A stretch of DNA of 64,000 nt, taken from positions 85,205 to 149,204 of the forward strand of contig JAFVAT010000005.1 in assembly GCA_017480385.1 (NCBI GenBank). Reading direction: 5' to 3'. The position numbers and the translations under genes are program-made. This stretch comes from Alphaproteobacteria bacterium. GTDB lineage: Bacteria > Pseudomonadota > Alphaproteobacteria > CAAGCB01 > CAG-977. Under the pieces are notes generated by a model. That model saw nothing but the letters and a program-made list of their open reading frames with translations, made no database searches and had not been told where the DNA came from. Of the stretch, positions 2,317 through 37,233 are shown in pieces. The number at the start of each line of letters is the position of its first letter. Position 1 is the stretch's first letter.

Positions 2317-2877
2317 TCACAATTGTTCCGCCGCCCATTTTTTCAGGTCTTCCGCAGAAACGCCGGCAGGAAAACGCTTGCCTTCAAGAACTTTCGCTTT
2401 CGGTGCCAAAGCCTGCATATTCTTGCCCGATTCACCGATCGGACTGACGCCGGAAGTCGCAAATGGAACAACCGTTTTGCCTGAAAAATCATACGCTTCC
2501 ATAAACGTGTCGATAATGGAGGGTTCTCTGTACCACCAGATCGGGAAGCCGACGAAAACGACATCGTATTGCGCTATGTTTTCGACTTTGGAAGCAATCG
2601 CCGGACGGCTGTTTCTGTCGTTCATTTCAACCGTGCTCCGGCTTTGCTTGTCCGTCCAGTCCAGATCCGCGTCCGTATAAACCTGCGCCGGTTTGATTTC
2701 AAACAAATCCGCGCCGACCGCTTCGGATAATCTGTTTGCCACGCCCGCCGTCACGCCGCTGGCGCTGAAATACGCGACCAGCATTTTTTTACCGCTCATA
2801 TTTGTTTCCTCCGCTTTTGTCTGAAAAGGCGTTAAAAAGGTTAAAACCGTTAAAAACGCCGATAAAAGTTTTTTCAT
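2317..2877 (-). CDS. exported flavodoxin-like protein
   Basis: 186-aa ORF; Sec-type signal 'MKKLLSAFLTVLTFLTPFQTKAEE' followed by flavodoxin-like 'KMLVAYFSASGVTAGVA...FVGFPIWW'. Confidence 0.6.
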   Translation of the reverse strand: MKKLLSAFLTVLTFLTPFQTKAEETNMSGKKMLVAYFSASGVTAGVANRLSEAVGADLFEIKPAQVYTDADLDWTDKQSRSTVEMNDRNSRPAIASKVENIAQYDVVFVGFPIWWYREPSIIDTFMEAYDFSGKTVVPFATSGVSPIGESGKNMQALAPKAKVLEGKRFPAGVSAEDLKKWAAEQL

Positions 2878-3506
2878 TAAACCGCTCCTATATTTTTGCC
2901 TAATTCATAGGCCTGTTGAGGATACTTTGTTTTGTTCACCGCTCCGACCGGCCAGACGCCCGAAGCGATCACCCGCCCCGCGTCCGTCCAGCCCAAATAG
3001 TTCAACAACGTTTCGTAATGCGAAATAATCGGCTGCGCTTCTTTGGCCGCCGTATCCGCGTACGTCATCAACAAAACGGCCTTTTTCGGGCGGTGAATCC
3101 GTCCGTTGATCGCGTAAAAGCGGTCGATTACGGTTTTTAACTGCGCCGAAATGCCGAAATAATACATCGGCGTAACAAATGCGACCGCATCGGCGTCAAC
3201 AATATGTTCGCGCACAAAATTGAAATCGTCGCTAAAGACGCACGGCCCGTCCATACCGCAATGATTGCAGGCGATACACGGGTGAACCTTTTTAAACGCC
3301 GCGTCAAAACGTTCGATATGATGACCGGCCTCTTCAGCGCCCTTGATAAAATTATCCGCCAAAGTCGCCGAATTGCCGTTTTTCCTCGGACTGCCCGTCA
3401 GAACCAGTATTTTCATTTGCTTTTCTCCGCCCGCTTTTAAAGCCTTCGGCAACATCGCCAACGCCCCCGCCGCCAAAGTGCCTTTGATAAAATCGCGCCT
3501 GTTCAT
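2877..3506 (-). CDS. NADPH-dependent FMN reductase / iron-sulfur flavoprotein family, TAT signal
   Basis: 209-aa ORF; 'MNRRDFIKGTLAAGALAML' TAT signal; 'KILVLTGSPRKNGNSATLAD' flavodoxin-like NADPH-FMN-reductase fold; start overlaps stop of flavodoxin gene (ATGA). Confidence 0.6.
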   Translation of the reverse strand: MNRRDFIKGTLAAGALAMLPKALKAGGEKQMKILVLTGSPRKNGNSATLADNFIKGAEEAGHHIERFDAAFKKVHPCIACNHCGMDGPCVFSDDFNFVREHIVDADAVAFVTPMYYFGISAQLKTVIDRFYAINGRIHRPKKAVLLMTYADTAAKEAQPIISHYETLLNYLGWTDAGRVIASGVWPVGAVNKTKYPQQAYELGKNIGAV

Positions 3507-3543
3507 TATTCCCCCGCTTTCAAACGACCCTTTATCTTCGCAT

Positions 3544-3566
3544 TTAAAGTCAGCTTTAAGTCAAGA
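3544..3566 (-). promoter_or_regulatory. palindromic operator-like motif TTAAAGtcagCTTTAAGTCAAG overlapping a CTTGAC -35-like box, 38-60 nt upstream of the flavoprotein operon start
   Basis: Perfect 6-4-6 inverted repeat TTAAAG/CTTTAA; near-identical copy at 10954-10975. Confidence 0.5.
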
Positions 3567-4814
3567 AAAAAGTTCAAAAACGGCGTTCAGCCTTTTCCGC
3601 CTCAGCATATCGCCGCGTTTTTCGGGCAAAGTCGCGGCTATTTCTTCCGCACTCAGCCGGATTGCCGCCGATTGTTTATAAACAGCGGAAACAAGGTTCA
3701 AAGCGCCCGCGAAATTCTTTTTCCATTCATTATCTGCGCGGTTGCAATATCTGTCCGCCAGACAGGCGATCAGGAACAATTCCGGTTTGTTTTCCGTCTG
3801 CTTGTAAATATCCCAAATAAAGTCGAATTTTTTGGCTTTTCTCATTTCGGAAAAATGATGAAAGCGCATATGGTTTTCGCAGACGAACCGGCACAGCTTC
3901 GCCGTAAAGGACGGCAGTTTCAGCCGCGCGCAAAAATCCATCCTCAACAGCTCCGCGCCCAGTTTGTCATGCCCGATGTGACGGGGGAATTCCGCCGGAT
4001 CGGTCAGCGGCTTGCCGATGTCGTGCAGTAAAACCGCCCAGTAAAGCGATTGCCTGGCCTGTTTGTTTAAATTGAAAAAGTCAACGTTCCTGTCCAGCCA
4101 TTTCAGCGCGCTGACGACGTGGCCGCCCGTGTTGCCTTCGGGGTGGTATTGCGGCTTTTCGGGACAGGAAAAAAGCATTTCCAAAGCGGGACAATAGGCC
4201 TCCAATGCTTTTAAAGCGTGCAAATTTTCGACAAACGCCCCGCCCGATTTCGCATCAAAGGCCTTGATAAATTCGGCGTAAAACCGTTCCGCCGGCAAAG
4301 AGGAAAGATCGCCTGATTCAGCCAAATGCACACATTCCGTCCGCGTCCGTTCCGTCAAGGTAAAGCCGAGCGTCGCCGCAAACCGCGCCGCCCGAACCGC
4401 GCGCAAAGGGTCTTCGCCGAAATGAGCCGGATCGACAACCTCCAATTCGCGGCGTTCCAAATCCTGCAAAGCCCGTTCGCTTACCCCCGTTTTGACAAGA
4501 TTTTCCGCTTCGTCCATAACAAGGCAATTCACGGTAAAATCGCGGCGCAACAAGTCTTCGTCAAGCGTTACGTCTTTGGAAAAGTCGAACGCAAACCCCC
4601 GATGACCTTTGCCCGTTTTGATGTCTTTGCGGGCTAGGGCGTGTTCCTCTTTGGTGTCGGGGTGCAGGAAAACGGGAAAGCCCGCCCCGACGCGCTGAAA
4701 TCCGACGGCCAGCATTTCCGCTTCGGTCGCGCCGACAACGACCCAATCCTTGTCTTCGGGCGCTTTTCCCAACAGCTTGTCCCTGACATATCCGCCGACA
4801 ATATAGCGTTTCAT
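3561..4814 (-). CDS. cca: CCA tRNA nucleotidyltransferase (poly(A) polymerase head + HD domain)
   Basis: 417 aa; 'YIVGGYVRDKLLG' nucleotidyltransferase head, 'RDFTVNCLVMD', HD motif 'LLHDIGK'. Confidence 0.8.
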   Translation of the reverse strand: MKRYIVGGYVRDKLLGKAPEDKDWVVVGATEAEMLAVGFQRVGAGFPVFLHPDTKEEHALARKDIKTGKGHRGFAFDFSKDVTLDEDLLRRDFTVNCLVMDEAENLVKTGVSERALQDLERRELEVVDPAHFGEDPLRAVRAARFAATLGFTLTERTRTECVHLAESGDLSSLPAERFYAEFIKAFDAKSGGAFVENLHALKALEAYCPALEMLFSCPEKPQYHPEGNTGGHVVSALKWLDRNVDFFNLNKQARQSLYWAVLLHDIGKPLTDPAEFPRHIGHDKLGAELLRMDFCARLKLPSFTAKLCRFVCENHMRFHHFSEMRKAKKFDFIWDIYKQTENKPELFLIACLADRYCNRADNEWKKNFAGALNLVSAVYKQSAAIRLSAEEIAATLPEKRGDMLRRKRLNAVFELFS

Positions 4815-9892: not shown

Positions 9893-10918
9893 CTATTTCA
9901 ATTTATTGTAATCAGAATCGCCGACTTCTTCCAGCCATTCGGTCGAAGCGCCTTCAGCCGGAACGCTCATCGCGATATGCGTGAACCAGCTGTCCTTCGC
10001 CGCGCCGTGCCAATGCTTGACTTCGGCGGGAATATGGACGACATCGCCGAGGTGCAGTTCCTGTGCAGGTTTGCCCCATTCCTGATACCAGCCGCGCCCC
10101 GCCGTCACCAGCAAAATCTGACCGCTCTTGTGATGAACATGCCAGTTGTTGCGGCACTTCGGTTCAAAGGTCACGTTCGCAATGCCGACTTCCTCTTTAT
10201 TCAGCGGCTGTAAATAGCTTGTCCCCTTGAAGTATTTGGCATAAGCCATGTTTTCCTGCCCGAAACCAAACAAAATGTCCTGCGCGGCAGCCTTTTGCGC
10301 GACATTCAGGATTTCCGCCACCTGTTCATCGGTCAACCCGTTATGCTTGCCAACCGCAATATGACTGTTCAGCTGGCTTTCGACGCCGTTACGTACGGAA
10401 AGCATCGCGATCGTCGCCACTTCTCTGGTCTGCCAATCCACATTGTCGCGCGCGAAAATGTCGCCGAACAAATGCGCTTTCAGATATTCGTCGATCGCCG
10501 GCGCGAAATCAAACAGAGGCCCTTTAACCTCCCGTCCCGTCAGCTTTGTCTGATTCGCCGCGCCGTATTCCAAAGCCGTTCCTTTTGGCTTAGCGGAAGG
10601 CAAGCTCCCCTGTTCATCCTTGTTTCCGCGTTCGTTAACAACCGTCATCAACGTGCCCAAAGCGTTTAAGGCCCTCGGGAATCCACAGTAAGCGTAAGCC
10701 TGCGTCAGAATTTCCTTAAACTCGTTGACCGTCACACCGTTATCCAAACCGTTGATCAAAGCCTGTTTCAGCCCTTTTTGATCGCCTTTCGCCGTATAGG
10801 CTGCAACCTCGGCGATTGTTTTTTGTTTCGCGGTCAAAGCTCCGTTTGCCATTGCGTTTCCTCCCGTAAAAAGAATAAGCGCGCCCAGAAACAGCGCAGA
10901 TAAGTTTCTATTCGACAT
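9893..10918 (-). CDS. carboxymuconolactone decarboxylase (CMD) domain + cupin domain fusion, signal peptide
   Basis: Likely start at 10918 (MSNRNLSALFLGALILF...); cupin motif 'HHKSGQILLVTAGRGWYQEWGKP...GDVVHIPAEVKHWHGA'. Confidence 0.55.
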   Translation of the reverse strand: MSNRNLSALFLGALILFTGGNAMANGALTAKQKTIAEVAAYTAKGDQKGLKQALINGLDNGVTVNEFKEILTQAYAYCGFPRALNALGTLMTVVNERGNKDEQGSLPSAKPKGTALEYGAANQTKLTGREVKGPLFDFAPAIDEYLKAHLFGDIFARDNVDWQTREVATIAMLSVRNGVESQLNSHIAVGKHNGLTDEQVAEILNVAQKAAAQDILFGFGQENMAYAKYFKGTSYLQPLNKEEVGIANVTFEPKCRNNWHVHHKSGQILLVTAGRGWYQEWGKPAQELHLGDVVHIPAEVKHWHGAAKDSWFTHIAMSVPAEGASTEWLEEVGDSDYNKLK

Positions 10919-10953
10919 CTTGCACTCCTTGAGTTTTTTTATTAGATTAGCTT

Positions 10954-10975
10954 TTAAAGCTGACTTTAAGTCAAG
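10954..10975 (-). promoter_or_regulatory. operator-like motif TTAAAGctgaCTTTAAGTCAAG with embedded TGACTTtAAGTCA palindrome, upstream of the CMD-cupin operon
   Basis: Matches the 3544-3566 motif and the tetR operator half-sites. Confidence 0.5.
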
Positions 10976-11029
10976 CATTTTTTTAACTGCCGCTGAAAAA
11001 GCATATCAAAGCTAAAACTCTTCTAAAGA

Positions 11030-11593
11030 GTTGTGGTTTGACGCAAAATAATCATCTGCTATAATTCCGTCTGCATATAATTCGACAATCCCCGGCGTTG
11101 CGGTTTGACGCAAAATAATCATCTGCTATAATGGGAGCGGGGAGGAATCACCCGCTCTTTACGTTGCGGTTTGACGCAAAATAATCATCTGCTATAATGA
11201 ATGATCAAGGATTCGGCGGTGTTGATTAGTTGCGGTTTGACGCAAAATAATCATCTGCTATAATCGGACGGGGGATGATAAATATCTCCGCGTTGTTGCG
11301 GTTTGACGCAAAATAATCATCTGCTATAATTCAAGCGCATTATCGATGTCGATGCATAAGTTGCGGTTTGACGCAAAATAATCATCTGCTATAATCAAAG
11401 TCCTTAAAAATGAGACGTAACGGCAGTTGCGGTTTGACGCAAAATAATCATCTGCTATAATTCTTGACCAGCTCTAAAGTCAGTCAAAAAAGTTGCGGTT
11501 TGACGCAAAATAATCATCTGCTATAATTAGGAGCAGTAAGGATGAAGGTTTGCGTTTGTTGCGGTTTGACGCAAAATAATCATCTGCTATAAT
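11030..11593 (+). CRISPR. CRISPR array, 9 x 36-bp repeats (GTTGCGGTTTGACGCAAAATAATCATCTGCTATAAT), 8 spacers of 29-31 bp
   Basis: Repeats start at 11030 (degenerate, C5T), 11097, 11163, 11229, 11295, 11360, 11426, 11492, 11558; unique spacers; each repeat carries TTGACG-N16-TGcTATAAT on the + strand. Confidence 0.95.
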
Positions 11594-11599
11594 ATCAAT

Positions 11600-11632
11600 G
11601 AAAAAAGCCTTTGAAAACAAAGGCTTTTTTCT
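11600..11632. terminator. bidirectional intrinsic terminator between CRISPR array and cas2
   Basis: AAAAAAGCCTTTGaaaaCAAAGGCTTTTTT: 8-bp stem, A-run 5' and T-run 3'. Confidence 0.7.
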
Positions 11633-11643
11633 TTATTTTTCGT

Positions 11644-11973
11644 TTAAAAAAGTGTCAGCTGCTCCGGTTTTTCCGATATCAAAACAGGTTTTCGATTCCG
11701 AAATGTGATAATGTCGGCAAATTGTTTGTCCGTAAAAAACAAAATGCTGACGTTACCGTCCGGCGGAATCTGCTTTTTTATTCTGTTTATAAAAGGCGTC
11801 GCCATTTCCCGCGTGCCGCAAAAGCGGAAATAAACCGAAAACTGGCTCATTTCAAAGCCTTCGTCCAACAAATAATTCCGAAACGCCGTCGCCCGTTTGC
11901 GTTCTTCGGGTTCCGCCACGGGCAAATCGAACATTACCATCATCCACATCAGATTGTATCCCGTCACCGACAC
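11644..11973 (-). CDS. cas2: CRISPR-associated endoribonuclease Cas2 (GTG start)
   Basis: 109 aa; 'MSVTGYNLMWMMVMFDLPV' Cas2 N-terminus; begins 1 nt after cas1 stop. Confidence 0.9.
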   Translation of the reverse strand: MSVTGYNLMWMMVMFDLPVAEPEERKRATAFRNYLLDEGFEMSQFSVYFRFCGTREMATPFINRIKKQIPPDGNVSILFFTDKQFADIITFRNRKPVLISEKPEQLTLF

Positions 11974-11974
11974 A

Positions 11975-12883
11975 TTAAAGGTTCCACAGATTTTTTCCGG
12001 TCATCGCTTCGGGCAAGTTCAGACTGTCCGCTTCCCCCAAAACGCATTTTTGCAAAGAAACCGCCAGATCGGAAATCAGATACCCGACTTCACATTCCCG
12101 ATCGCCCGTTTTCACCGTACGGGACAGCAACGCGACAAGCCGTTTTTTCACTTCCGGCGTAACAGAGCCGAACTCGTCCTCATCCGTCATACGATAGACG
12201 CAAAAATCAACCAGAGGGCGGAACGGTTCCATCAAATCGTCCGCCAGACGCATCGCATTGTATTGATTTTGATGATGTATCCCCAAAGACGGATGCAATC
12301 CCGCCCCCGTAATCGCCCGAACAACCGAGGATCGTAAAATCGTATAACCGTAATTCAGCATCGCGTTAATGCCGTCCTGCGCCCTATCCCTGCGGAAATC
12401 CTTGCCGAACAACGTTTGAAAATAATATTTTGCCCCCTGCCCTTCCAAATTTTTGGGATCGCCGTTTTTGACCTGCTTTGCCATATAACGCAGAGACGCG
12501 TCCGGCTTTGAACAGGTTTTCAAAACTTCCGCCTGTTGCGTCAGTTTGGCTTGAATGATGTCTTTCCAATAACGGTCGGCGGCGGATTGCTTCATTCTAG
12601 CCTGAGCCGTCAGAATGTCGCCCTGCAAATGGTGGTTTTCCAGAGGGATCATAATCGAAGCGGGAACGTGATTCGCTCCGCAAACAACGAAAGGCGCATT
12701 CTGTTCCGCCAACCGGACAAGCAGATTGTTTGAATAGGTCAAGCCGTGCGCGTTGGCAATCACCGCCCCGATCTGATCGATCGGCACGCGCCCGACCTCT
12801 TGCGCGTTTTCATATACGACCATAAAACCGTGATCGACCGCCAGATAGCGATTATCCTGCGTGATTTCGATGATTCTATCCAT
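11975..12883 (-). CDS. cas1: CRISPR-associated endonuclease Cas1 (type II)
   Basis: 302 aa; Cas1 fold motifs; start overlaps cas9 3' end by 8 nt. Confidence 0.95.
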   Translation of the reverse strand: MDRIIEITQDNRYLAVDHGFMVVYENAQEVGRVPIDQIGAVIANAHGLTYSNNLLVRLAEQNAPFVVCGANHVPASIMIPLENHHLQGDILTAQARMKQSAADRYWKDIIQAKLTQQAEVLKTCSKPDASLRYMAKQVKNGDPKNLEGQGAKYYFQTLFGKDFRRDRAQDGINAMLNYGYTILRSSVVRAITGAGLHPSLGIHHQNQYNAMRLADDLMEPFRPLVDFCVYRMTDEDEFGSVTPEVKKRLVALLSRTVKTGDRECEVGYLISDLAVSLQKCVLGEADSLNLPEAMTGKNLWNL

Positions 12884-15800
12884 CCGCCTGCCCTTCCGGA
12901 CGCTTCGGGTCTATCACCCGTCCGTCTATCGTCACGGTGATTTTACGTCCGTTATGTAATCTGAATTGTTCAGCAGATGCGGCCCAAGAAAGTTTATCCG
13001 CTTCTTCTTTCGCAATAAGATGAGGACGTAAATAAAACAAAATACCTGTCATCTTTTTAACTCGGGCGATGATTGTTTCCCCGTCTTTTTCATAAGCGAC
13101 CATATCGTCAATATGCAGACGCATAATCAGTTTGGCGTGGGCGTCCGTATGACGCCATTTCGGAACGAAGTCTTTCTGATGGGCGCAATAGTTCGGAATG
13201 ATCTCGATTTGCCATTTTCCCGCGTTTTTCCCTCTGTCGGGACAGTAAATCTCCGCATACGCGTTTCCGCCGTAAATCGCGTAACGATACGGTTTCCCGT
13301 TTTTATCTTTAAAAGGCAGAATGACATTCTTGTTTCTTTCCCGATACGTCCTGACCTTGCGCGTGTTCCTGTCGGCAAAATAGCTCTGAATGATTGCTTC
13401 GTGTTCGGATTTGTCTTTCCCGTCCAACAAAGCGCGGATTTTATCCGCCGTTCCCGCTTGGTCGATGATGATATCCAAATCCGCCTCCGTTTTAAACTCG
13501 GTCACGGGGACGCGCTGAATCAGTTTCCACGTCCTTTTCTTATCTCCCTCGCCCGCAAAGCCGTAATACGTTTCCTCGTGCAATTTGGCGACCGTCTTTC
13601 CTTCCTGAATAGCTTTTTGCGGGTTGCCGTGGTCGGGTTTATGAGAAATCACCATACGGTCGAACGCGTCCTGCAATTCCCGCAGTCTGAATTCCGGATA
13701 AGGCAGATGAGGCGCCTTTTCCTGCGGCATTTGCGTGGAATAGTCACGTCGTTCCGTGGCATATTTCTGCAACGTCCCCCGTCCCGTGCAAGCGACAATA
13801 AACGCGTCCAAAGCGTGGTGGCGGTGATCCGTCCTATCCTTTTGATCTTCGGGGAACAGAGATTCCAATCCCCAATGGTGGCGCAGTTTCGCCGTCAGCT
13901 GTCCGGGGATGCCCCACACCTTCGACGGATTTGCGGCAAAGCACAAATACTGACGCGCCACCCGCGCCATATATTGCGTATCGGTCAGCATACGCGCCAG
14001 AACATCGTCCAAGTCCTGAAAAGCGTCTTCCCTGAACTTTTTCGCGCGGTTTTTCTTTTCGTCGTGCTTTAAGGAAAAATTTTCAACGCGCCCCAGAATC
14101 TCATTCCAACGTTTTTCATCGGCGTGGAAAGCCTCCCACGGAGAACGATTGCCTTTTTCACGGTTGCACGCACGGCAGGAAATGACTTTGTTGGTGCGGG
14201 CGTCCGAATATGACCGCGCAAACGGCAATAAATGCTCGATTTCAAATTCATCGGAAAACAGATGTTCGAAATTTATTGGCTTGCCGCAGAACGGACAACA
14301 CCTTTGAGACGAATCGTCGGAGGAATCCTCCCACAACTTGTATTTCATCCTGTTGTCATAAGAGTTTTTGACGCCTAAACGCTCCAATTCTTTGGCGATA
14401 CGGTCGTTATCTTTCGTGTTTTCCGTTTGCAACTTGTTCAATTCGTCTTTGGCTTTTTTACCCAACTTCAACTCGCGCGCCAATTCGACGACGATCGATT
14501 CGGGATGACCATAGCGTTTTACCAACTCGTTAATCAACTTTCTGACTTGATTCAGCGCGATGTGAACGGTCGGATTATTGATTTTTCCCCAGTATTTTTC
14601 GGGAAAATCCTTGTCCGCCGCGGCGTTCGTTCCGCCGATGACCGCTTTTGGCATCGCTTCCCCGTAATACGGCAACTCGTCATACACATCGCCCGTTTCC
14701 GGATTGATGAAAGTGTTGTAATATTCGGGTAAAGTCCCTTTCGTCTTTAAAGAAAACGTGTAGCCTGCCGATTCGACCGCCTGATGATACGGCTGTCCTT
14801 CGCGCAGAAAAGGATTTATTTTTCCTAACGCCTTCAAGCTTAAAGACGCCGTGCCGTCTTCCAAAGACGTATGCGCAACGGCTTCCGCCTGCTCCGGACT
14901 TAAAGCGTATTTGTCTTTTAATTCTTCAATCAGTTTCGATTCGTCCTGCGCGTTTAAAAGCAACGCCACGATTTCGTTTTGTTTTTCTCTGTCAAAAGAA
15001 AACCATTCCTTGCCGAAACAAGACTCATCCGCCAACTGCGCCGCCGTCGTGTCCGCGTCAAGTCCTTTGCGTTTTTCCGATTCCAGATTAAACGACACTT
15101 TCGGATTGACGCCGAACGGTTTGAGCAATTTTTTCGCCGCCGACCAGGTCAATGTCCGCTTTTTCTTATCCAAAGCGGAAAAGTCCTTTGCCGTGAAACG
15201 GTATAAAACCTCACGTTCCTCCGGCGTTAAAAAGCGTTCATCATCATCGTAAAGAATTTTCAACTGGTTGATCTGTTGCAATAAACGGCTTTGCTGAAAA
15301 GCAGGATAAGCGCAATACGCGCGGCGTTCGCCTTCCTCGAACTGACATAATCCCAATTCGGGCTGTTTCAACGGACGCTGATTGAAAATGATGTGGAAAA
15401 GATCGTCTTCGATTTCTTTCGACAAACCTTGCTTCGTCATAATTTGCCGAAATTCATCTTCGTACATTGCACGGTCGGGATAAAGCGGATAGGACGCTTT
15501 GCTCTTGACCACGATTGATTTTGCGCGAACAGGAACAAAATCCTGCGTGGAGGTTTTATCTTTGTTCATCAGGTACAGATATTCCCCCAAAGTCCGCGCG
15601 CCCGCTTCCGTCATACGTTTTCTTGTTTCGGCAATCGCGGTCTTCATCGCGCCCGTTTCCGCATCCTTTTTATCCGTCTTTAAATTGCTTTTAAACCCTC
15701 TGCGCTGATTGATGTGAAACAAAGCCCGCCCCAATTCATAGGGAGTCAGCTTTTCATCCAACGCCTTCGCGCGTAAAAAGTAGGGATCAAGCATTTCCAA

Positions 15801-16076
15801 CGCTTTGCGTTCCGCTTCGTCCTGCGGCATCAAACCGTATTTGATCAGCCTGTTCATCAGCGTTTCGCGACGCATCACAAAACGGTCGCGGCGTTTGCGC
15901 ATTCCTCTGGCCGTCCGGCGGGCGACCGCAAGCGGCTCTTTCGTTTTCGAATCCCGTCCGTCCGAAAAAATACGGACACCGAAATTTTCAAAGCGGTACG
16001 GCGCGCCGTCTTTTGTTTCGATGATGCTCCAGCCTAACGACGTTTCGCCCAAATCCAATCCCAAAACATAACGCAT
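12876..16076 (-). CDS. cas9: Cas9, type II-C
   Basis: 1066 aa; RuvC-I 'LGLDLGETSLGW', Arg-rich bridge helix 'RRTARGMRKRRDRFVMRR', HNH 'EIEHLLPFARSYSDARTNKVISCRACNREKGN', RuvC-III 'HHALDAF'; no csn2 or cas4 in the locus. Confidence 0.95.
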   Translation of the reverse strand: MRYVLGLDLGETSLGWSIIETKDGAPYRFENFGVRIFSDGRDSKTKEPLAVARRTARGMRKRRDRFVMRRETLMNRLIKYGLMPQDEAERKALEMLDPYFLRAKALDEKLTPYELGRALFHINQRRGFKSNLKTDKKDAETGAMKTAIAETRKRMTEAGARTLGEYLYLMNKDKTSTQDFVPVRAKSIVVKSKASYPLYPDRAMYEDEFRQIMTKQGLSKEIEDDLFHIIFNQRPLKQPELGLCQFEEGERRAYCAYPAFQQSRLLQQINQLKILYDDDERFLTPEEREVLYRFTAKDFSALDKKKRTLTWSAAKKLLKPFGVNPKVSFNLESEKRKGLDADTTAAQLADESCFGKEWFSFDREKQNEIVALLLNAQDESKLIEELKDKYALSPEQAEAVAHTSLEDGTASLSLKALGKINPFLREGQPYHQAVESAGYTFSLKTKGTLPEYYNTFINPETGDVYDELPYYGEAMPKAVIGGTNAAADKDFPEKYWGKINNPTVHIALNQVRKLINELVKRYGHPESIVVELARELKLGKKAKDELNKLQTENTKDNDRIAKELERLGVKNSYDNRMKYKLWEDSSDDSSQRCCPFCGKPINFEHLFSDEFEIEHLLPFARSYSDARTNKVISCRACNREKGNRSPWEAFHADEKRWNEILGRVENFSLKHDEKKNRAKKFREDAFQDLDDVLARMLTDTQYMARVARQYLCFAANPSKVWGIPGQLTAKLRHHWGLESLFPEDQKDRTDHRHHALDAFIVACTGRGTLQKYATERRDYSTQMPQEKAPHLPYPEFRLRELQDAFDRMVISHKPDHGNPQKAIQEGKTVAKLHEETYYGFAGEGDKKRTWKLIQRVPVTEFKTEADLDIIIDQAGTADKIRALLDGKDKSEHEAIIQSYFADRNTRKVRTYRERNKNVILPFKDKNGKPYRYAIYGGNAYAEIYCPDRGKNAGKWQIEIIPNYCAHQKDFVPKWRHTDAHAKLIMRLHIDDMVAYEKDGETIIARVKKMTGILFYLRPHLIAKEEADKLSWAASAEQFRLHNGRKITVTIDGRVIDPKRPEGQADG

Positions 16077-16149
16077 TGAAAGAAAACTCCTTAAAAATTG
16101 TTTCTAAAAATATTGACATACTTTACAAATATGTGACAACTTATATCTA

Positions 16150-16246
16150 TCATTTTAGCAGATGATTATTTTGTGTCTTTCCGTTAACAAGAATCAGAGA
16201 TTCACAAAATGAAAGGGGTGACTGCGCGTCGCCCCTTTAATTTTTA
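16150..16246 (+). ncRNA. candidate tracrRNA (anti-repeat 16156-16188, terminator 16212-16246)
   Basis: 16156-16172 TAGCAGATGATTATTTT is the exact reverse complement of repeat nt 16-32, with partial complementarity continuing to ~16188; GC hairpin GGGGTGAC/GTCGCCCC + TTTAATTTTT at the 3' end; TTGACA at 16113-16118 upstream. Confidence 0.65.
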
Positions 16247-16333
16247 TGCGGTTTTAGCGAGATTCATCTTGACGAAACAGGCTTTTGAAGTTAAAAGAAA
16301 AGCTCTGGATTTTTGTTTAAAGGAAATTGTGTT

Positions 16334-16633
16334 ATGGCCAAACGTTGCATTATTACCGGAAAAGGCGTGCAGACAGGGAACAATGTTTCTCACGCGAACA
16401 ACAAGACTCGCCGTCGTTTTATGCCGAACTTGCAGTCCGTTTCTTTGCTGAGCGAAACATTGGGTACGACAGTTACATTGCGCATGTCTTCCCGCGGTTT
16501 GCGGACGATTGAACACAACGGCGGATTGGACGCGTTTTTATTGTCCACGCCGAACGGCAAGCTGTCCTGCGAAGCCAAGCGTTTGAAAAAGCGTATTCTG
16601 GGTTCTGCCGAAAAGCACGCCGCGCAAGCTTAA
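16334..16633 (+). CDS. rpmB: 50S ribosomal protein L28
   Basis: '[34 protein letters not shown]' is the canonical bL28 N-terminus. Confidence 0.9.
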
Positions 16634-16650
16634 TCGCTGCCGCAAGAATT

Positions 16651-16688
16651 AAAAAAACCGTCCGATATTTTCGGGCGGTTTTTTTTGT
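16651..16688. terminator. bidirectional terminator after rpmB
   Basis: ACCGTCCG(n7)CGGGCGGT stem flanked by A-run and T-run. Confidence 0.6.
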
Positions 16689-16714
16689 TGCCGGCAATAA
16701 AAACTTAAAGAAAA

Positions 16715-17860
16715 TCACTGGCATAAATTCTGCTGTATTATTTTTTCAAATAAATCCTTTGAGGCATTTTGTTCTTCTTCCGAAAAAGGAAAAGATATTA
16801 TATCGTTTTTCTCTTTTTCTTTATTCGGATTAACGGGCAGCATTTTGACCAACTCAGCTTGCGGGATTTTGCAAATTTTGCTGTAATCAACCGTTTTTTC
16901 TTTGATTTCCAACGTATTTTTAAACGTTACCGTGCAAACATCGTCACTGAAAACCGAAGAAAGTCCTTTCGTGATTTTAACGCCGCCAAAGGAACTGCTT
17001 TCAGAACCCGAATTATGTTGCTTTTCTCCAGAAGCACAGGCCTTTATTGCTCCAAACAGGCCGGTTGTCGAATATTCGGGAATATATTTTGCGGCGGCAG
17101 AATCTTCAGCGAAAGAATAAAAGTCCGTCCATGCTTCGATTTTTTGAGCTTGCGTTTTATTCAAAGAAAACTCAAACGGGGGCATTTTAATTTGGCACAA
17201 ACCGTTTTTAATGCCTGTTATTTCCGCGGTCATTTTAAAAAAAGTAATCTTTTTTTCTGTTTCGGCAGCACGACAAACGCGTAAACCTTCGATAAAGTCT
17301 TGAGACAGAGCGAATGTTTTGCGCTGCAGTTTTTCCATATCCTGTTCTGACAATTTTATATCCCGTTTTTCGCAGGCCGATTCTGAAATTTTTTTCCACG
17401 CAATATTCATTTTCGTATCCGTAACGGTCATTTCCATCGGCTTTTTTTCCTGAGTCCCGTCGGGCTTGGAATAGGAGATATAAGTCGTGAACGTTTCCGT
17501 AACCTGATCTGTCGACGTATCCGTCATCGCGTCGCGGATTTCTGTCAGCTGTTCAGGAGAAACAGAGCAGGCATAATCAGAAAGAACGATGTCGTCCATT
17601 TGACTGGCGATCGAAAAATCGCAAAAGCCTTTATCGTTTTTACCCTTGATCCGAATATAAGTCGCTATGTCGTCCAATCCGAAAAATTGAGTAAACATTT
17701 TTAAAATCGGATTAGAATTTGTGAAGTTTTCCTCATAAGGAGCACACTCTTTCGCCGCATTTTTCAGTTCGTCCGTAAAATGATAAAAGGGAGCTGACTG
17801 TGCTTTTGCATGAAAAGCAGACAAGCCGAAAAGCAGGAAAAGGGTCAGACTTTTTTTCAT
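16715..17860 (-). CDS. hypothetical secreted Cys-containing protein
   Basis: 381 aa; signal 'MKKSLTLFLLFGLSAFHAKAQS'; no recognisable motifs. Confidence 0.45.
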   Translation of the reverse strand: MKKSLTLFLLFGLSAFHAKAQSAPFYHFTDELKNAAKECAPYEENFTNSNPILKMFTQFFGLDDIATYIRIKGKNDKGFCDFSIASQMDDIVLSDYACSVSPEQLTEIRDAMTDTSTDQVTETFTTYISYSKPDGTQEKKPMEMTVTDTKMNIAWKKISESACEKRDIKLSEQDMEKLQRKTFALSQDFIEGLRVCRAAETEKKITFFKMTAEITGIKNGLCQIKMPPFEFSLNKTQAQKIEAWTDFYSFAEDSAAAKYIPEYSTTGLFGAIKACASGEKQHNSGSESSSFGGVKITKGLSSVFSDDVCTVTFKNTLEIKEKTVDYSKICKIPQAELVKMLPVNPNKEKEKNDIISFPFSEEEQNASKDLFEKIIQQNLCQ

Positions 17861-17863
17861 TTT

Positions 17864-19456
17864 TTATCCTTTTTTTCTGTGCAGACGAGCTTTTATTTCT
17901 TTTAAGCTTACACCACCGGACAACAGGACGGCAACTGTAAATATGATTCCTCCGAAAGCGATCAGACCGGTCAATATGCCAAAGCGAATTATTTGCGCGC
18001 TATGTACCCAATCGGGGAAATAAACAGCTGTTTTTTTATTGGCAAAAATAACGGCGCCGGTCATTACAAGGGTGGAAATTAAAATGGAAAAGGCGCGTTT
18101 TTTTAACATGCGATCGGCGCGGTGCAAAGCTTGCTTTTTGATGCGCCAGATATATTGCAGCACGTTGATCCACGCGACAATTCCCGTTGCCAATGCAATG
18201 CCGACATAGCCGAAGTTCGGCAGGAAAGCGGCGCATAACAGGATATATAATCCCAAAGCCCAAGCCGCAATCCGAACCGGTGTCGTCGTGTCGCCGCGGG
18301 CATAAAAGACGGGAGCCAGAGTCTTCGTCAGAATATAGGCCGGCAGTCCCGCGGCATAAGCGCAAAGAGCAACGGCGGTATTGACGCTGTCCGTGTTCGT
18401 AAATTCGCCGCGTTCAAACAAAACGGAAATGACCGGATAGCTTAAAGCCATCAGTCCCGCCATAGACGGCACGGACATCAGCAAAGCAAATTCCAATGCG
18501 CGGTTCAAACTGTTTTGCGCCTGTTCCGTTTCTCCGGCTTTCAGCTGGCGGGACAAGATCGGCAATAATGCCGTGCCGATCGCCGCGCCGATGATGCCGA
18601 CAGGCAATTGGTATAACCGATTGGCGTAGTACAGCCATGATACGGCGCCCGTTGACAGGAACGATACGAATAACGTATCCAAAAACAGATTGATCTGATA
18701 AATGCCCGATCCGAACACGCCGGGAATAATCCGTTTCATTAACAGCTTCAATTCCGCCGATCTGTCTTTGATCACAGCGGCAGGTCCTCTTAATCCCAAA
18801 GGCAATCCCGCGCGGTGCGTGTGCCAGATCAGCCACAGCAATTGAAATACGCCGGCCAAGGTCACGCCGGCAGATAAAGCATAACCGTAATTGCCGCCGA
18901 ACAAAGGCGTTAAAGCAAACAGGGCTGCGATCATGGTCACATTCAGCAATACCGGCGTTAAAGCAGCGGCGGCGAAATACCCCATGGAATTGAGCATGCC
19001 GCTTTGTAAGGAATTTAAAGAGACCAACAGCAAATAAGGAAACGTAATTCGCGACATGATGACGGCTGCGTCGAATTTTGCCGGGTCTTCAACAAATCCG
19101 GGCGCCTGTACGATAATAAAAACCGGCATCGCGATTTCGGCAATCGCCGTAAAAAGCAGAACAATATAAAACAAAGCGGAAAAAGCTTCTTCAGCAAAAC
19201 GGCGGGCAGGCTCTTTGCCCTTGGTTTCCAGATGTTCCGAAAACAATGGCACAAAAGCGACGTTAAAAGCGCCTTCGGCAAACAGACTTCTGAACAGATT
19301 AGGCAGCTTGAAGGCGACAAAGAATGCATCGGCGATCATGCCTGCTCCTAAGAAATTCGCGATCAAAAGATCTCGCACAAAGCCTAAAACACGGCTGACC
19401 ATTGTCCAACCGCCGACCGTTATAATAGATTTAATGACTGAAAGAGGCGCTGCCAT
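17864..19456 (-). CDS. murJ: lipid II flippase MurJ/MviN
   Basis: 530-aa polytopic membrane protein with MurJ-like N-terminus 'ANFLGAGMIADAFFVAFKLPNLFRSLFAEGAFNVAFVP'. Confidence 0.85.
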   Translation of the reverse strand: MAAPLSVIKSIITVGGWTMVSRVLGFVRDLLIANFLGAGMIADAFFVAFKLPNLFRSLFAEGAFNVAFVPLFSEHLETKGKEPARRFAEEAFSALFYIVLLFTAIAEIAMPVFIIVQAPGFVEDPAKFDAAVIMSRITFPYLLLVSLNSLQSGMLNSMGYFAAAALTPVLLNVTMIAALFALTPLFGGNYGYALSAGVTLAGVFQLLWLIWHTHRAGLPLGLRGPAAVIKDRSAELKLLMKRIIPGVFGSGIYQINLFLDTLFVSFLSTGAVSWLYYANRLYQLPVGIIGAAIGTALLPILSRQLKAGETEQAQNSLNRALEFALLMSVPSMAGLMALSYPVISVLFERGEFTNTDSVNTAVALCAYAAGLPAYILTKTLAPVFYARGDTTTPVRIAAWALGLYILLCAAFLPNFGYVGIALATGIVAWINVLQYIWRIKKQALHRADRMLKKRAFSILISTLVMTGAVIFANKKTAVYFPDWVHSAQIIRFGILTGLIAFGGIIFTVAVLLSGGVSLKEIKARLHRKKG

Positions 19457-33749: not shown

Positions 33750-36700
33750 TCAATACTCCATTATATCACAAACGGCCTCTGTGATATCCATCAGCTTAGG
33801 CGCTTCGGTCCATAACAAAAAGCACCGAATCTGTTTATCAGGGTAAATTTCTGCCATTAACGCGCGGTAAGCGGCCATTTGTTTTAAATAAGCCGCGGGC
33901 GTTTCTTTGACTGACGCGGGAATGAAACGTCCTGTTTTATAATCAATCAGGCGCACTTCTTGGTCTGAAACGCTGATTCTGTCAATACGACCATTGATCA
34001 CGCGGCTGCCGACAACGCCGGAAACGGGCACTTCCGCCAAAGAAGATGCGGCGAACAAATCCGATGCCGCCGAATCATTTAGCAGCGTTAAAACATCATG
34101 TATCAAAGCTTCCCGTTCACTTTTTTTCGCTGAAGGCATCTGTACCGACACCACTTTTTCAGCAGCGGCAGGGTGGTCTTGGATCGGATATTGCGGCAAA
34201 ATTTCCAACAGCGCGTGAATGACCTGACCGCGTCTCATCGCCTCGATTCGCCCCTGCGTTAACGGAGACAGGCACGCAGGCTCTTCCACGTCCGGTCGGG
34301 ACGGCGCCAATGGTCGCGGCGGCGTCGGTTCTTTCGGAGCAGCAGCCGCAATCCATTCCGGCAGCGGGCGCGTTTCTTGATCAAGCGCGTCTTGCTTTTC
34401 AACAATCGGCGGTATTTCCTGCGCCGAAGACAAACGCAAAACCGGTTCTTCAAACAGATCGGTCTGGACTTCCTGAACCCGATAGGAAAGCGTGCCGTCC
34501 GGATTTTCCGTACTTAACGCACCGCGCACTAAATCGTACCAGTTATTTTTCGCATTTCGGGAGGTATCCCAGCCCGTAATGTACAACCGGTCTGCCGCGC
34601 GTGTCAGAGCCACATAAAGCAGTCGGTTGTATTCGCGCTGATTTTTTTCCTTCAGGCGTTCTATTTCTTCGCTGATCAGGTCTGTGCGCCATTGCGCGCT
34701 CGGAGCCCAAAAAAACATTTCATCGTTTCCGTTTTTCGGCCAAAAAGTTTTCGGCGAAAAAAATTTCAGCTGACGGGTATCCGGCAAAAAGACGATCGGC
34801 GCCTGCAATCCTTTGGCGGCATGAACCGTCATAATGCGTACGGCGTTTAATCCGGATTGTTCGGGGTCGCGTTTGATCTCGACATCATTTTGACGCAGAC
34901 TGCTTAAAAAGCTTTGCAAGGAAGGCGGACCGGATTGGTCGTGCTGCAAAGCCAAAGACAGAAATTCGTCCAAAGCGTCCAAAGCCTGTATGCCCAGACG
35001 GGAAACAAAAGCCTTTTGCCGCCCCAAGGGGCCCAAAATATAAGAATACAGTTCATAGGGACGCATTTTATCCACGCGTGAAAGCAGGTCTTTAATGAAC
35101 GAACAGGCCTTCCCCAACGGTGTTTCCGGCTGATTTTCATAAGTCCTGAGCCGGTTAAACAGCGTCGTTTTTCCGCGATTGTATGCTAAGGCGAATAGAT
35201 CTTTTTCCGAAACGCCGTCAAGCGGCATTTTCAAACGGCGCGCCGTTTCCAAGTCTTCGGCGGATAAATCATCGGCGGAAACACCGCATAAAGGGGAACG
35301 CAAAACGGTCGCCAAAGCCAGATCGTCTTCGGGCAGCAGCAATACGTCCCCCAAAGCCATTAAGTCTTTGACGGCGATATGCGACGTGATTTTCAACCGG
35401 TCAACGCCGGAAACGGGAACGCCGCGCGTTTTTAATTCGCGGGACAAATCGTTGATAAAGGAATTGCGGCGGCGGACCAAAATCAGGATATCTCCCGCCT
35501 GTATCGGTCGACCGGCGGATTCCAGCATTTCTTTTGAATCGAGCATATCTGCGATTTTTTGGGCGATTTTACGGGCCAAACGGGCGGAAGGCGTTTGGGA
35601 AAAAACGCGTTCGACCGGTTTTGTAAAAGGACGCTGAGCATCATTTTCTTCGGGCTTTTCCGTCGGCCAGACTTCAATCAGGCCGGCCTGCTTTTTGCGC
35701 CAGGAAATATGCGTGACATTTTCGTCGGGTTCAGCCACGCCGCTGCGCGCCGGATCAAAACGCAGCACAAAATTAACGGCGTCAATAACGGCGGGAACAG
35801 AACGGAAAGAAATATACATCGGAACGTCATTCCACGCTTTTCCGGCACTTTCGACTTTTGCTTTAAAGAATTGGCGCATCTGTTCAAATTCTTCCGGAAC
35901 AGCGCCCTGAAAGCTGAAAATCGATTGCTTTTTATCGCCGACCGCAAAGAGCGTCCTGTTTGTTTGGCGCAGTCCGGCGCCGGCAAAAAATTCTTCCGCC
36001 AGCGCTTTGATGATCGCCCATTGGTCAGGACTGGTATCCTGCGCTTCATCAACCAGAATATGATCAATGCCGCCGTCCAGTTTGAACAAGACCCAAGCAG
36101 CGGCTCCGGAGCCTTCCAGCAGTGCTTTTGCCGCAGCGATCAAATCGTCGTAATCCATAACGCCGCGGTCGTTTTTTAAAAGCATGTATTCGTTTAAAAT
36201 GGCTGAGCTGATACGGAACAAAGCTAAAGAAAGCTTCATATTTTGAATGGCTTGCAGATGCTTGGAAAAAAGCAGCGCTTTTTGCGCTTCCGCTTCCATT
36301 ACAGGTAGAACGGCAGCGGATTCTTTACAGGCCAACTGATCGCGAATTGTTCCGCTGCCGGTCAGAAAAACGGAGACATACTGCTGCGCAAGATCAGGCC
36401 TGTCCTCTTGGGCCGCCGCCAAAAAAGGATACATTTTTTCCGCTTTTTCCCGATCCGTTTTTTTAGCGGACGCACTTAAAACATCTGCCGCCTGCTTCAG
36501 CGCTTTGTATCGTTCGTCTTCCAAACGGCAAAATTCCCGCGTCAGGGAATCAGGCGTGCTTCCGACTGGAAGGTCCAGCATTTTTTCATAAGCATCCGTT
36601 AAGTCCCGCAGGGAAGAATAGTGCCGGTTTATGCGTTTTAATGCGGGCAAGTGCAAAGTCATTTCCGTTAAAACATCTAAAAAGCCGTCTTCCGTCGTTA

Positions 36701-37232
36701 CCGCGGTAATGATATCCAGAGCGTCTTCATATTCGGGACGGCTTAATATGGCCTTTTGCGCCTGAGCAATCAGTTCTTTCGCTCCGATCTCGTCCAAAAT
36801 ATCAAACTGCGGAGAAATGCCGGCCTCCAACGGAAAGCGTTTTAACAAAGACTGGCAGAAACCGTGCAGCGTTGTAATTTTCAGCCCGCCGGCAGTATCT
36901 AATAAGCGCGCGAACAGGCGGCGGGCCTGAGCGATTCTTTTCGCATCGGGCGGCGTGCCGGCCAAATCGGTCAATTCCCTGATCAGCGTTTCTTCCTCCG
37001 TAGAGGCCCATTTTGCCAATCTGGCGGCGATGCGGTTGGCCATTTGAGCCGCGGCGGTACGCGTAAACGTCAGGCATAAAATTTTTTCGGGCGGCGTGCC
37101 GGTTAACAACAAATTCAGCACCCGGTCGGACAATACTTTTGTTTTGCCCGATCCGGCGGAAGCCGCCACCCAGGCGGATTCTTCGGGATTGGCCGCAATG
37201 CGCTGCAAAACGTTCGGATCGCTTAAATCCAT
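33750..37232 (-). CDS. addA: double-strand break repair helicase/nuclease AddA (UvrD-like + PD-(D/E)XK)
   Basis: Walker A 'ASAGSGKTKVL'; C-terminal nuclease 'RIDRISVSDQEVRLIDYKTG'; start at 37232 with AGGGGAGG RBS. Confidence 0.85.
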   Translation of the reverse strand: MDLSDPNVLQRIAANPEESAWVAASAGSGKTKVLSDRVLNLLLTGTPPEKILCLTFTRTAAAQMANRIAARLAKWASTEEETLIRELTDLAGTPPDAKRIAQARRLFARLLDTAGGLKITTLHGFCQSLLKRFPLEAGISPQFDILDEIGAKELIAQAQKAILSRPEYEDALDIITAVTTEDGFLDVLTEMTLHLPALKRINRHYSSLRDLTDAYEKMLDLPVGSTPDSLTREFCRLEDERYKALKQAADVLSASAKKTDREKAEKMYPFLAAAQEDRPDLAQQYVSVFLTGSGTIRDQLACKESAAVLPVMEAEAQKALLFSKHLQAIQNMKLSLALFRISSAILNEYMLLKNDRGVMDYDDLIAAAKALLEGSGAAAWVLFKLDGGIDHILVDEAQDTSPDQWAIIKALAEEFFAGAGLRQTNRTLFAVGDKKQSIFSFQGAVPEEFEQMRQFFKAKVESAGKAWNDVPMYISFRSVPAVIDAVNFVLRFDPARSGVAEPDENVTHISWRKKQAGLIEVWPTEKPEENDAQRPFTKPVERVFSQTPSARLARKIAQKIADMLDSKEMLESAGRPIQAGDILILVRRRNSFINDLSRELKTRGVPVSGVDRLKITSHIAVKDLMALGDVLLLPEDDLALATVLRSPLCGVSADDLSAEDLETARRLKMPLDGVSEKDLFALAYNRGKTTLFNRLRTYENQPETPLGKACSFIKDLLSRVDKMRPYELYSYILGPLGRQKAFVSRLGIQALDALDEFLSLALQHDQSGPPSLQSFLSSLRQNDVEIKRDPEQSGLNAVRIMTVHAAKGLQAPIVFLPDTRQLKFFSPKTFWPKNGNDEMFFWAPSAQWRTDLISEEIERLKEKNQREYNRLLYVALTRAADRLYITGWDTSRNAKNNWYDLVRGALSTENPDGTLSYRVQEVQTDLFEEPVLRLSSAQEIPPIVEKQDALDQETRPLPEWIAAAAPKEPTPPRPLAPSRPDVEEPACLSPLTQGRIEAMRRGQVIHALLEILPQYPIQDHPAAAEKVVSVQMPSAKKSEREALIHDVLTLLNDSAASDLFAASSLAEVPVSGVVGSRVINGRIDRISVSDQEVRLIDYKTGRFIPASVKETPAAYLKQMAAYRALMAEIYPDKQIRCFLLWTEAPKLMDITEAVCDIMEY

Positions 37233-37233
37233 G

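Follow-up and report, generated by a model that had tools for sequence, protein, structure and literature searches.

The 64-kb stretch of DNA analyzed here, in the following called the window, stems from a metagenome-assembled genome (MAG) of an uncultured gut-type alphaproteobacterium and carries the genes cas9, cas1 and cas2 next to a CRISPR array. This raises the question of whether genes and array constitute a complete type II-C system and, if so, on which strand its guide RNAs would be made. Judged from its sequence and from related loci, this locus, whose architecture is of the Neisseria/Campylobacter type, is very probably a real and complete type II-C CRISPR-Cas9 system of adaptive immunity and appears to be functional. 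An earlier note on this DNA had described such a locus at the same position, and this description stands with the correction that the cas genes lie on the minus strand.

Cas9 and the cas gene cluster

The product of cas9 matched TIGR01865 with 586 bits (cutoff 100) as well as the Pfam families HNH_4 (PF13395), RuvC_III (PF18541) and Cas9_a (PF18470). The nuclease motifs were located in GLDLGETS (RuvC-I, D8), IVVELARE (RuvC-II, E531), EIEHLLPF (HNH, H615), NREKGN (N638) and HHALDAF (RuvC-III; H753, H754 and D757), and each of these residues was invariant in an alignment of 50 homologues sharing 45-90% identity. In the same alignment, residues R53, R54, R57, R65 and R69 of the Arg-rich bridge helix (R53-R69) were invariant as well. 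An AlphaFold2 model built from this alignment reached a mean predicted local distance difference test score (pLDDT) of 83, and Foldseek aligned it over its full length to Nme1Cas9 (6kc8) with template modeling (TM) scores of 0.69/0.71, to ThermoCas9 (9ar4) with scores of 0.65/0.67, and also to GeoCas9. The statement of the earlier note that RuvC-I, RuvC-II, RuvC-III, bridge helix and HNH motifs are all present is in accordance with these results: the motifs are intact and invariant among homologues, no inactivating substitution was found at D8, the HNH His or in RuvC-III, and neither the array nor the elements of the trans-activating CRISPR RNA (tracrRNA) were absent. Two of its remarks on the protein had to be given up, namely the value of 1.07 kDa per residue, which is an error as the protein totals 123.3 kDa, and the designation of Cas9 as compact, since 1066 amino acids (aa) is an ordinary size for II-C and not unusually small. 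Cas9 with these HNH and RuvC sites would be expected to cut matching DNA flanked by a protospacer-adjacent motif (PAM).

Cas9 has the size given in the earlier note, and the three cas genes are closely spaced, as described there, with an overlap of 8 nucleotides (nt) between cas9 and cas1 (12876-12883) and a gap of 1 nt between cas1 and cas2, provided that cas2 begins at the GTG at 11973. The start of cas2 is ambiguous (11934-11973), as a public gene caller took a later internal ATG, which yields a protein of 96 aa. All 109 residues were covered in tblastn alignments with 11 close relatives; moreover, the 13 codons preceding the internal ATG are kept in the relatives and this region includes a strand, GY.LMW, that is characteristic of type II Cas2. 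The GTG start is therefore preferred because the relatives conserve all 109 residues. Taken from the sequence, cas9, cas1 and cas2 read as a single tightly packed minus-strand operon ending at a predicted bidirectional terminator. Subtype II-C is defined by a minimal cas9-cas1-cas2 operon without the csn2 of II-A and without the cas4 of II-B (PMC3737331). Between tracrRNA, cas9, cas1, cas2 and array no further open reading frame (ORF) was detected, and there is no room for csn2 or cas4. All testable defining features of type II were found, i.e., the Cas9 nucleases, a full Cas9 fold, adjacent cas1 and cas2, an array and a tracrRNA. The assignment to type II-C made by the earlier note thus agrees with the gene content of only cas9-cas1-cas2 and with the best Cas9 matches, which are II-C enzymes; the grouping of Cas9 with II-C orthologs is judged by the sequences and folds that match it best (Geo, Thermo, Nme1, Hpa and EHCas9).

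Array, tracrRNA and predicted transcription of the guide RNAs

The array consists of nine repeats, as the earlier note had counted, which start at 11030, 11097, 11163, 11229, 11295, 11360, 11426, 11492 and 11558. On the plus strand the repeat reads GTTGCGGTTTGACGCAAAATAATCATCTGCTATAAT, and eight of the nine copies are identical, only the copy at 11030 differing by a C5>T exchange. A 16-nt core of the repeat occurs ten times in the window as compared to 0.06 times expected, and the tenth copy is inverted and lies in the tracrRNA anti-repeat (16158-16173). A consensus scan detected a sigma-70-type promoter, TTGACG-16-TGCTATAAT, on the plus strand of all nine repeats, with 11 of 12 consensus positions matched and the TG of an extended -10 element. 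In total the scan returned 20 promoter-like sites as compared to 7.0 ± 3.0 in shuffled sequences, and nine of these are the repeat promoters. Furthermore, wherever a relative has an array, its repeats retain the -35 and -10 elements. As the -10 box is formed by the final six bases of the repeat, transcription would start about 6-8 nt into the next spacer and then run into the next repeat; and as every repeat carries such a plus-strand promoter, transcription of the array most likely proceeds on the plus strand, against the direction of the cas genes, and yields one CRISPR RNA (crRNA) per repeat. Each of these short crRNAs would comprise a guide of roughly 23-25 nt, owing to the predicted start inside the spacer, followed by repeat sequence. 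[quoted passage not shown] The earlier note had recognized both the array and the tracrRNA, but had missed the crRNA strand and the promoter in each repeat.

Type II-C arrays grow at their last repeat, counted in the crRNA sense, where new spacers are taken up, whereas the first repeat is the oldest and constitutes a spacer-less 'extra' repeat (PMC12080349), which is mutated in 60% of the arrays, mostly in its first 15 nt (PMC12080349). The mutated cas-distal repeat at 11030 fits this polarity model, according to which the newest spacer would be the one at 11528-11557, beside cas2. By analogy with II-C, Cas1-Cas2 would insert new spacers at the cas2-proximal repeat, leaving the repeat at 11030 as the oldest and spacer-less one. 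The C5>T exchange is predicted to weaken the lower stem of the repeat:tracrRNA duplex from -42.3 to -39.0 kcal/mol. Degenerate distal repeats were also observed in the related loci L002, L004, L007 and L009, the changes lying in the 5' part of the repeat in crRNA sense. At the opposite end of the array, the terminator hairpin at 11600-11631 is located 6 nt from the cas2-proximal repeat and is kept in 11 of 11 relatives with compensatory changes in its stem. As predicted, this terminator would stop both the cas operon transcript and the transcript started by the promoter of the last repeat, thereby preventing antisense RNA to cas2.

The tracrRNA was analyzed via comparison of 12 loci, comprising the window and 11 relatives whose Cas9 is 61-89% identical. 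The putative tracrRNA gene at about 16149-16247 is well supported by its complementarity to the repeat and by covariation, which also bears out the tracrRNA element named in the earlier note. The repeat:anti-repeat duplex, calculated at -42.3 kcal/mol, contains a 3x3 U/U internal loop, and similar energies were obtained in 10 relatives. Repeat and anti-repeat change together across loci, as seen for CCAAAAC with CCAATAAC in L008, and a construct of repeat, GAAA and tracrRNA folds exactly like a single guide RNA (sgRNA), with z = -13.5. In the two 3' hairpins of the tracrRNA, 95.7% of the cells of the 12-locus alignment are paired and 12 of 16 pairs show compensatory changes; none of 500 shuffles and no slid register comes close to this covariation. 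Ten G-U cells of the hairpins would become A-C mismatches on the other strand, and only on the plus strand is the hairpin followed by a T-run; both findings speak for the plus strand as the tracrRNA sense. When Rfam was searched at gathering and at permissive thresholds, neither a tracrRNA nor a CRISPR family matched, and only terminator look-alikes below threshold appeared. We propose that the repeat part of the crRNA and the anti-repeat of the tracrRNA form a duplex of about 33 bp with the 3x3 internal loop, and that Cas9 would bind this crRNA:tracrRNA dual RNA along with the two 3' hairpins of the tracrRNA.

Between tracrRNA and cas9 lies a mirror-symmetric element of 33 bp, ATATTGACA-N15-TGTGACAACTT, which is conserved in 12 of 12 loci and reads TTGnCA, 17-18 nt, TGnCAAnnT on both strands. 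It is plausible that this element represents overlapping back-to-back promoters of tracrRNA and cas9, and it could equally be the binding site of a regulator. The combined proposal for this II-C clade of gut and rumen alphaproteobacteria, i.e., that one mirror-symmetric element drives both tracrRNA and cas9, that every repeat brings a complete -35 plus extended -10 promoter, and that the enzyme possibly recognizes a new PAM, is in our view rather doubtful. Should it be correct, the -35 element of each promoter would overlap the -10 element of the other, and expression of tracrRNA and cas9 would be mechanically coupled or co-controlled by one bound factor; likewise, a -35 with an extended -10 in each repeat would go beyond the repeat-embedded promoter described for Neisseria. 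Even then, a shared element and per-repeat promoters would amount to a variant of known II-C biology and not to a new kind of system. A further promoter-like sequence, AAGACA-16-TGCTAAAAT, was found by the scan on the minus strand of the anti-repeat (16179-16152), pointing at cas9. It was rejected as the main cas9 promoter, as a 1-nt deletion in the anti-repeat ruins its -10 element in most relatives. As a separate observation, this loss of the -10 element may reflect selection against antisense transcription.

Table 1. Positions of genes, RNA elements and predicted signals of the CRISPR-Cas locus in the window.
Feature	Position	Strand	Description	Basis
cas9	12876-16076	minus	1066 aa, ATG start, 123.3 kDa	ORF list and protein families
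cas1	11975-12883	minus	302 aa; type II (NMENI) subfamily	TIGR03639 (261.8 bits), PF01867
cas2	11644-11973	minus	109 aa from GTG at 11973	TIGR01573 (67.5 bits), PF09827
Shine-Dalgarno sequence AAGGAG	16087-16092	minus	10 nt upstream of cas9 ATG	direct sequence reading
CRISPR array	11030-11593	plus (crRNA sense, inferred)	nine 36-nt repeats, eight unique spacers of 29-31 nt	repeat finders and explicit search
Distal, oldest 'extra' repeat	11030-11065	plus	C5>T (GTTGTGG...)	only variant repeat
Region from cas2-proximal repeat to cas2 stop	11594-11643		spacer-integration side by analogy with II-C; holds bidirectional terminator	
Bidirectional intrinsic terminator hairpin (predicted)	11600-11631	both	14-bp stem, T-runs on both strands	terminator scan
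tracrRNA gene (putative)	about 16149-16247	plus	about 100 nt; upstream of cas9, divergent	anti-repeat, fold, covariation, terminator
tracrRNA anti-repeat	16152-16188	plus	complementary to repeat	
tracrRNA hairpin 1	16191-16203	plus	short	
tracrRNA terminator hairpin	16212-16238	plus	GC-rich; U-tract at 16241-16245	terminator scan
Mirror-symmetric candidate promoter region	16110-16142	both	33 bp	12-locus alignment of 70-nt cas9-tracrRNA spacer
Candidate tracrRNA promoter	TTGACA 16113-16118, TGaCAACTT 16134-16142	plus	18-nt spacing; start near 16149	12-locus alignment
Candidate cas9 promoter	TTGTCA 16139-16134, TGtCAATAT 16118-16110	minus	18-nt spacing; mRNA start near 16103, 10 nt upstream of the Shine-Dalgarno sequence	12-locus alignment

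Spacer targets, genomic context and alternative readings

Several observations weigh against the locus being an active II-C immunity system as described above. None of the eight spacers of the window has a protospacer in the INPHARED phages, and scans of IMG/VR for exact 20-22-mers were blank as well. In a metagenome scan, spacer 8 gave one match of a 22-nt core, located between genes at 676-697 of L023 (JGI contig Ga0222645_100510); both flanks of this match mismatch, including the three PAM-proximal bases, and the contig is not viral-looking, one PHROG of unknown function being its sole phage signature, so the match is probably due to chance. With eight spacers the array is short, and no sister assembly differing in its spacers turned up that would point to recent acquisition. 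Additionally, promoters, terminators and transcription start sites are predicted at the level of consensus sequences, and the promoters proposed for tracrRNA and cas9 are non-canonical, having a weak -10 hexamer (CAAnnT) that was not called by a strict consensus scan.

One alternative reading is that the locus is intact in sequence but does not defend against phages or plasmids, being either silent or used, for example, for the regulation of endogenous genes or for limiting natural transformation. In line with it, the 113 spacers of 10 related arrays had no match in INPHARED either, so that the blank result extends beyond the eight spacers of the window, those being the only ones compared with IMG/VR. 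Moreover, the short array would agree with it, the II-C system of N. meningitidis limits transformation (PMC5965381), and a scaRNA of Neisseria is named in the title of a paper. By contrast, no spacer matches the 64-kb window itself, and when all spacers were compared with the window and the fetched loci no self-targets were found, only overlaps between spacers of different arrays. Among relatives of 61-90% identity, purifying selection appears to act on the tracrRNA and on all three cas genes, and the arrays of the relatives, with up to 27 spacers, differ wholly between genomes, which indicates that the clade is still adapting. A lack of protospacers is also to be expected, as phages of gut and rumen alphaproteobacteria are poorly sampled. 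Taken together, we consider a non-defensive locus improbable.

With regard to the overlaps between arrays, two MAGs, L001 (10591-10612, from sheep rumen) and L007 (11264-11285, from another assembly), each have a spacer for one shared 30-bp target; the two spacers agree in register but lie on opposite strands, with 21 of 22 core positions identical, and L011 contains two pairs of near-duplicate spacers. This suggests that targets are shared and recurrent in the clade.

A second reading concerns the direction of the array. In the manner of type II-A, it could be transcribed on the minus strand as a long pre-crRNA, either by extension of the cas operon transcript or starting in a leader on the cas2 side, and the partner RNA of the guides would be the minus strand of 16150-16190. 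The array does follow immediately upon cas2 on the strand that the cas genes occupy, and the promoter-like sequence on the minus strand of the anti-repeat would suit such an RNA. However, a strong minus-strand terminator that is kept in relatives parts cas2 from the array, the promoters in the repeats face the plus strand, and a minus-strand 'tracrRNA' would run into cas9 without a terminator. Furthermore, the G-U pairs and the T-run of the tracrRNA hairpins suit the plus strand only, the -10 element on the minus strand of the anti-repeat is spoiled by the 1-nt deletion in most relatives, and the degenerate repeat is found at the cas-distal end. Minus-strand transcription of this kind is thus very unlikely, and plus-strand transcription of the array and of the tracrRNA is preferred.

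The genomic surroundings were analyzed as well. On one side the locus is flanked by MutS, GlnD, MurJ, a 381-aa ORF and rpmB (16334-16633), and on the other side by a CMD/cupin protein, flavin reductases and a TetR regulator. No mobile-element genes (integrase, transposase) were detected within 10 kb of the locus and no tRNA genes were found nearby; the GC content of 47% in the locus as compared to 48% in the window shows no anomaly. The rpmB-cas9 junction is identical in a 121-kb ENA scaffold (sample SAMN15829990) and in an independent Logan contig of 18.9 kb, and the junction between array and CMD gene is likewise spanned by the 121-kb scaffold. The flanking genes of the window (9893-19456: rpmB, 381-aa ORF, MurJ, CMD/cupin and flavin reductase) adjoin the cas module in none of 20 related loci (L001-L020), which holds even for the relative with an 89% identical Cas9. 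The position of the module of tracrRNA, cas genes and array is therefore not conserved, and its neighbors change from genome to genome. An identical Cas9 is already present in NCBI nr, annotated as Cas9 from an Alphaproteobacteria MAG, and the close relatives, too, are MAGs of Alphaproteobacteria, obtained from sheep rumen, horse feces and human gut and including "Acetobacter sp. CAG:977". That the locus might be an artefact of assembly or binning, or recently transferred cargo foreign to the chromosome, would be compatible with this lack of shared neighbors in 20 of 20 related loci, but is extremely unlikely given the two assemblies agreeing across the rpmB-cas9 junction, the scaffold spanning the other junction, the matching GC content, the absence of integrase, transposase and tRNA genes nearby, and close relatives that are all Alphaproteobacteria MAGs.

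The contextual claims of the earlier note agree with these findings: the host can be regarded as an uncultured alphaproteobacterium in view of the deposited identical protein, and the locus lies between a flavoprotein cluster and rpmB without mobile-element genes within 10 kb. Its claim that this is the only defense system in the window holds at the level of PADLOC run on the 60 window ORFs, where besides the Cas proteins only AddA and three partial-domain matches were returned. Gabija and DRT, indicated by PADLOC matches to GajB and RTasHel, were rejected, as the protein in question is AddA, composed of a UvrD helicase and a PD-(D/E)XK nuclease and with AddB adjacent. The matches to dCTPase and RmrA were rejected too, as they cover only a deaminase-like stretch of about 50 residues and a helix-turn-helix domain.

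Some further observations were made in the window and in the relatives. The AddA-like protein of 1183 aa is encoded beside a 979-aa ORF in the AddB position (33750-40173, minus strand), and its PADLOC matches were strong but generic. The 381-aa ORF between MurJ and rpmB (16715-17860, minus strand) had no Pfam or NCBIfam match. Relatives from Marinicella (L016, 29 to about 800) and Opitutales (L019, about 2864-3900) carry a second, unrelated array upstream of cas9, with the repeats GTTAACCGCCGCAAAGGCGGCTTAGAAA and GTTTCAATTCACGCGCCCGCGAGGGGCGCGAC, respectively.

Significance and comparison with characterized systems

The locus is an ordinary, textbook example of II-C whose Cas9 has already been deposited and machine-annotated, and its biological weight is small, being that of a further intact II-C locus, here from a gut-type alphaproteobacterium that is uncultured. 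What is added here are the crRNA strand, the promoters in the repeats, boundaries and structure of the tracrRNA, the polarity of the array, the terminator, a candidate bidirectional promoter and the nearest characterized ortholog. The guide elements, namely crRNA sense, 36-nt repeat, tracrRNA (16149-16247) including both hairpins, and internal loop of the duplex, are precise enough for the design of an sgRNA, and the 11 close relatives offer a family for comparison. Regarding the suggestion of the earlier note that Cas9 is a candidate for genome editing, the guide RNA elements are identifiable as claimed, whereas the appeal is generic and a characterized relative of the same general type, EHCas9, exists. 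The practical value is hence the generic one of any uncharacterized Cas9 of about 1066 aa, which is only a candidate. With at most about 35% identity to any characterized enzyme, the Cas9 of the window could have a new PAM.

Among the known systems, that of Neisseria meningitidis, with Nme1Cas9 (PDB 6kc8, 6jdv, 6jdq), shares with the window the restriction to cas9-cas1-cas2, repeats of 36 nt, spacers of roughly 30 nt and the overall fold of Cas9. In N. meningitidis, the repeats also end in an extended -10 box (here TGCTATAAT), crRNAs can start within spacers (PMC3737331, PMC5965381), and array and cas operon are read in opposite directions (PMC3737331, PMC5965381), as is likely here. By contrast, the identity to Nme1Cas9 is about 22-24% in the structural alignment (213 bits with phmmer), the repeats of the window additionally possess a near-consensus -35 element (TTGACG) at a spacing of 16 nt, and the tracrRNA is located upstream of cas9 in divergent orientation. 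In Campylobacter jejuni, the repeat-embedded promoters, the addition of spacers at the last repeat and an oldest extra repeat without a spacer, whose first 15 nt often carry mutations (PMC12080349), are comparable to what is seen or predicted in the window. CjCas9 is smaller and more distant (119 bits), and the terminator tested in C. jejuni lies upstream of the extra repeat (PMC12080349), whereas the conserved one of the window separates cas2 from the newest repeat, at the opposite end of the array.

GeoCas9 and ThermoCas9 (PDB 8jtj, 8uza, 9ar4) have the same order of domains and a similar length (chains of 1082-1095 aa), and GeoCas9 is the best sequence match among solved structures, with 250 bits and 32-35% identity over residues 1-443 and 499-795. 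They differ in that they derive from thermophiles of the Firmicutes and that the C-terminal WED/PI region could not be aligned by sequence, TM scores at the level of the fold being 0.57-0.67. A literature search for a characterized Cas9 from Kangiella found none.

The closest characterized ortholog tested is EHCas9, a metagenomic type II-C Cas9 of 1070 aa with an NGG PAM, whose closest database homologues are alphaproteobacterial (PMC10281378). With its sequence rebuilt from Fig. S2 of PMC10281378, BLASTP showed 35.4% identity to the Cas9 of the window over residues 3-1057 (528 bits), which is too low for PAM or guide scaffold to be transferred from one to the other. The two systems further differ in that the host of EHCas9 is unknown (PMC10281378), whereas the locus of the window is part of a chromosomal contig. 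EHCas9 has been placed in Gasiunas clade IX beside the Cas9 of Sulfitobacter donghicola (PMC10281378), and the clade placement of the Cas9 of the window is a lead, not a result. As in the window, the EHCas9 tracrRNA gene is about 100 bp long, is located upstream of cas9 and comprises an anti-repeat followed by two stem-loops (PMC10281378), and its array has likewise been inferred to be read in the direction of the tracrRNA (PMC10281378).

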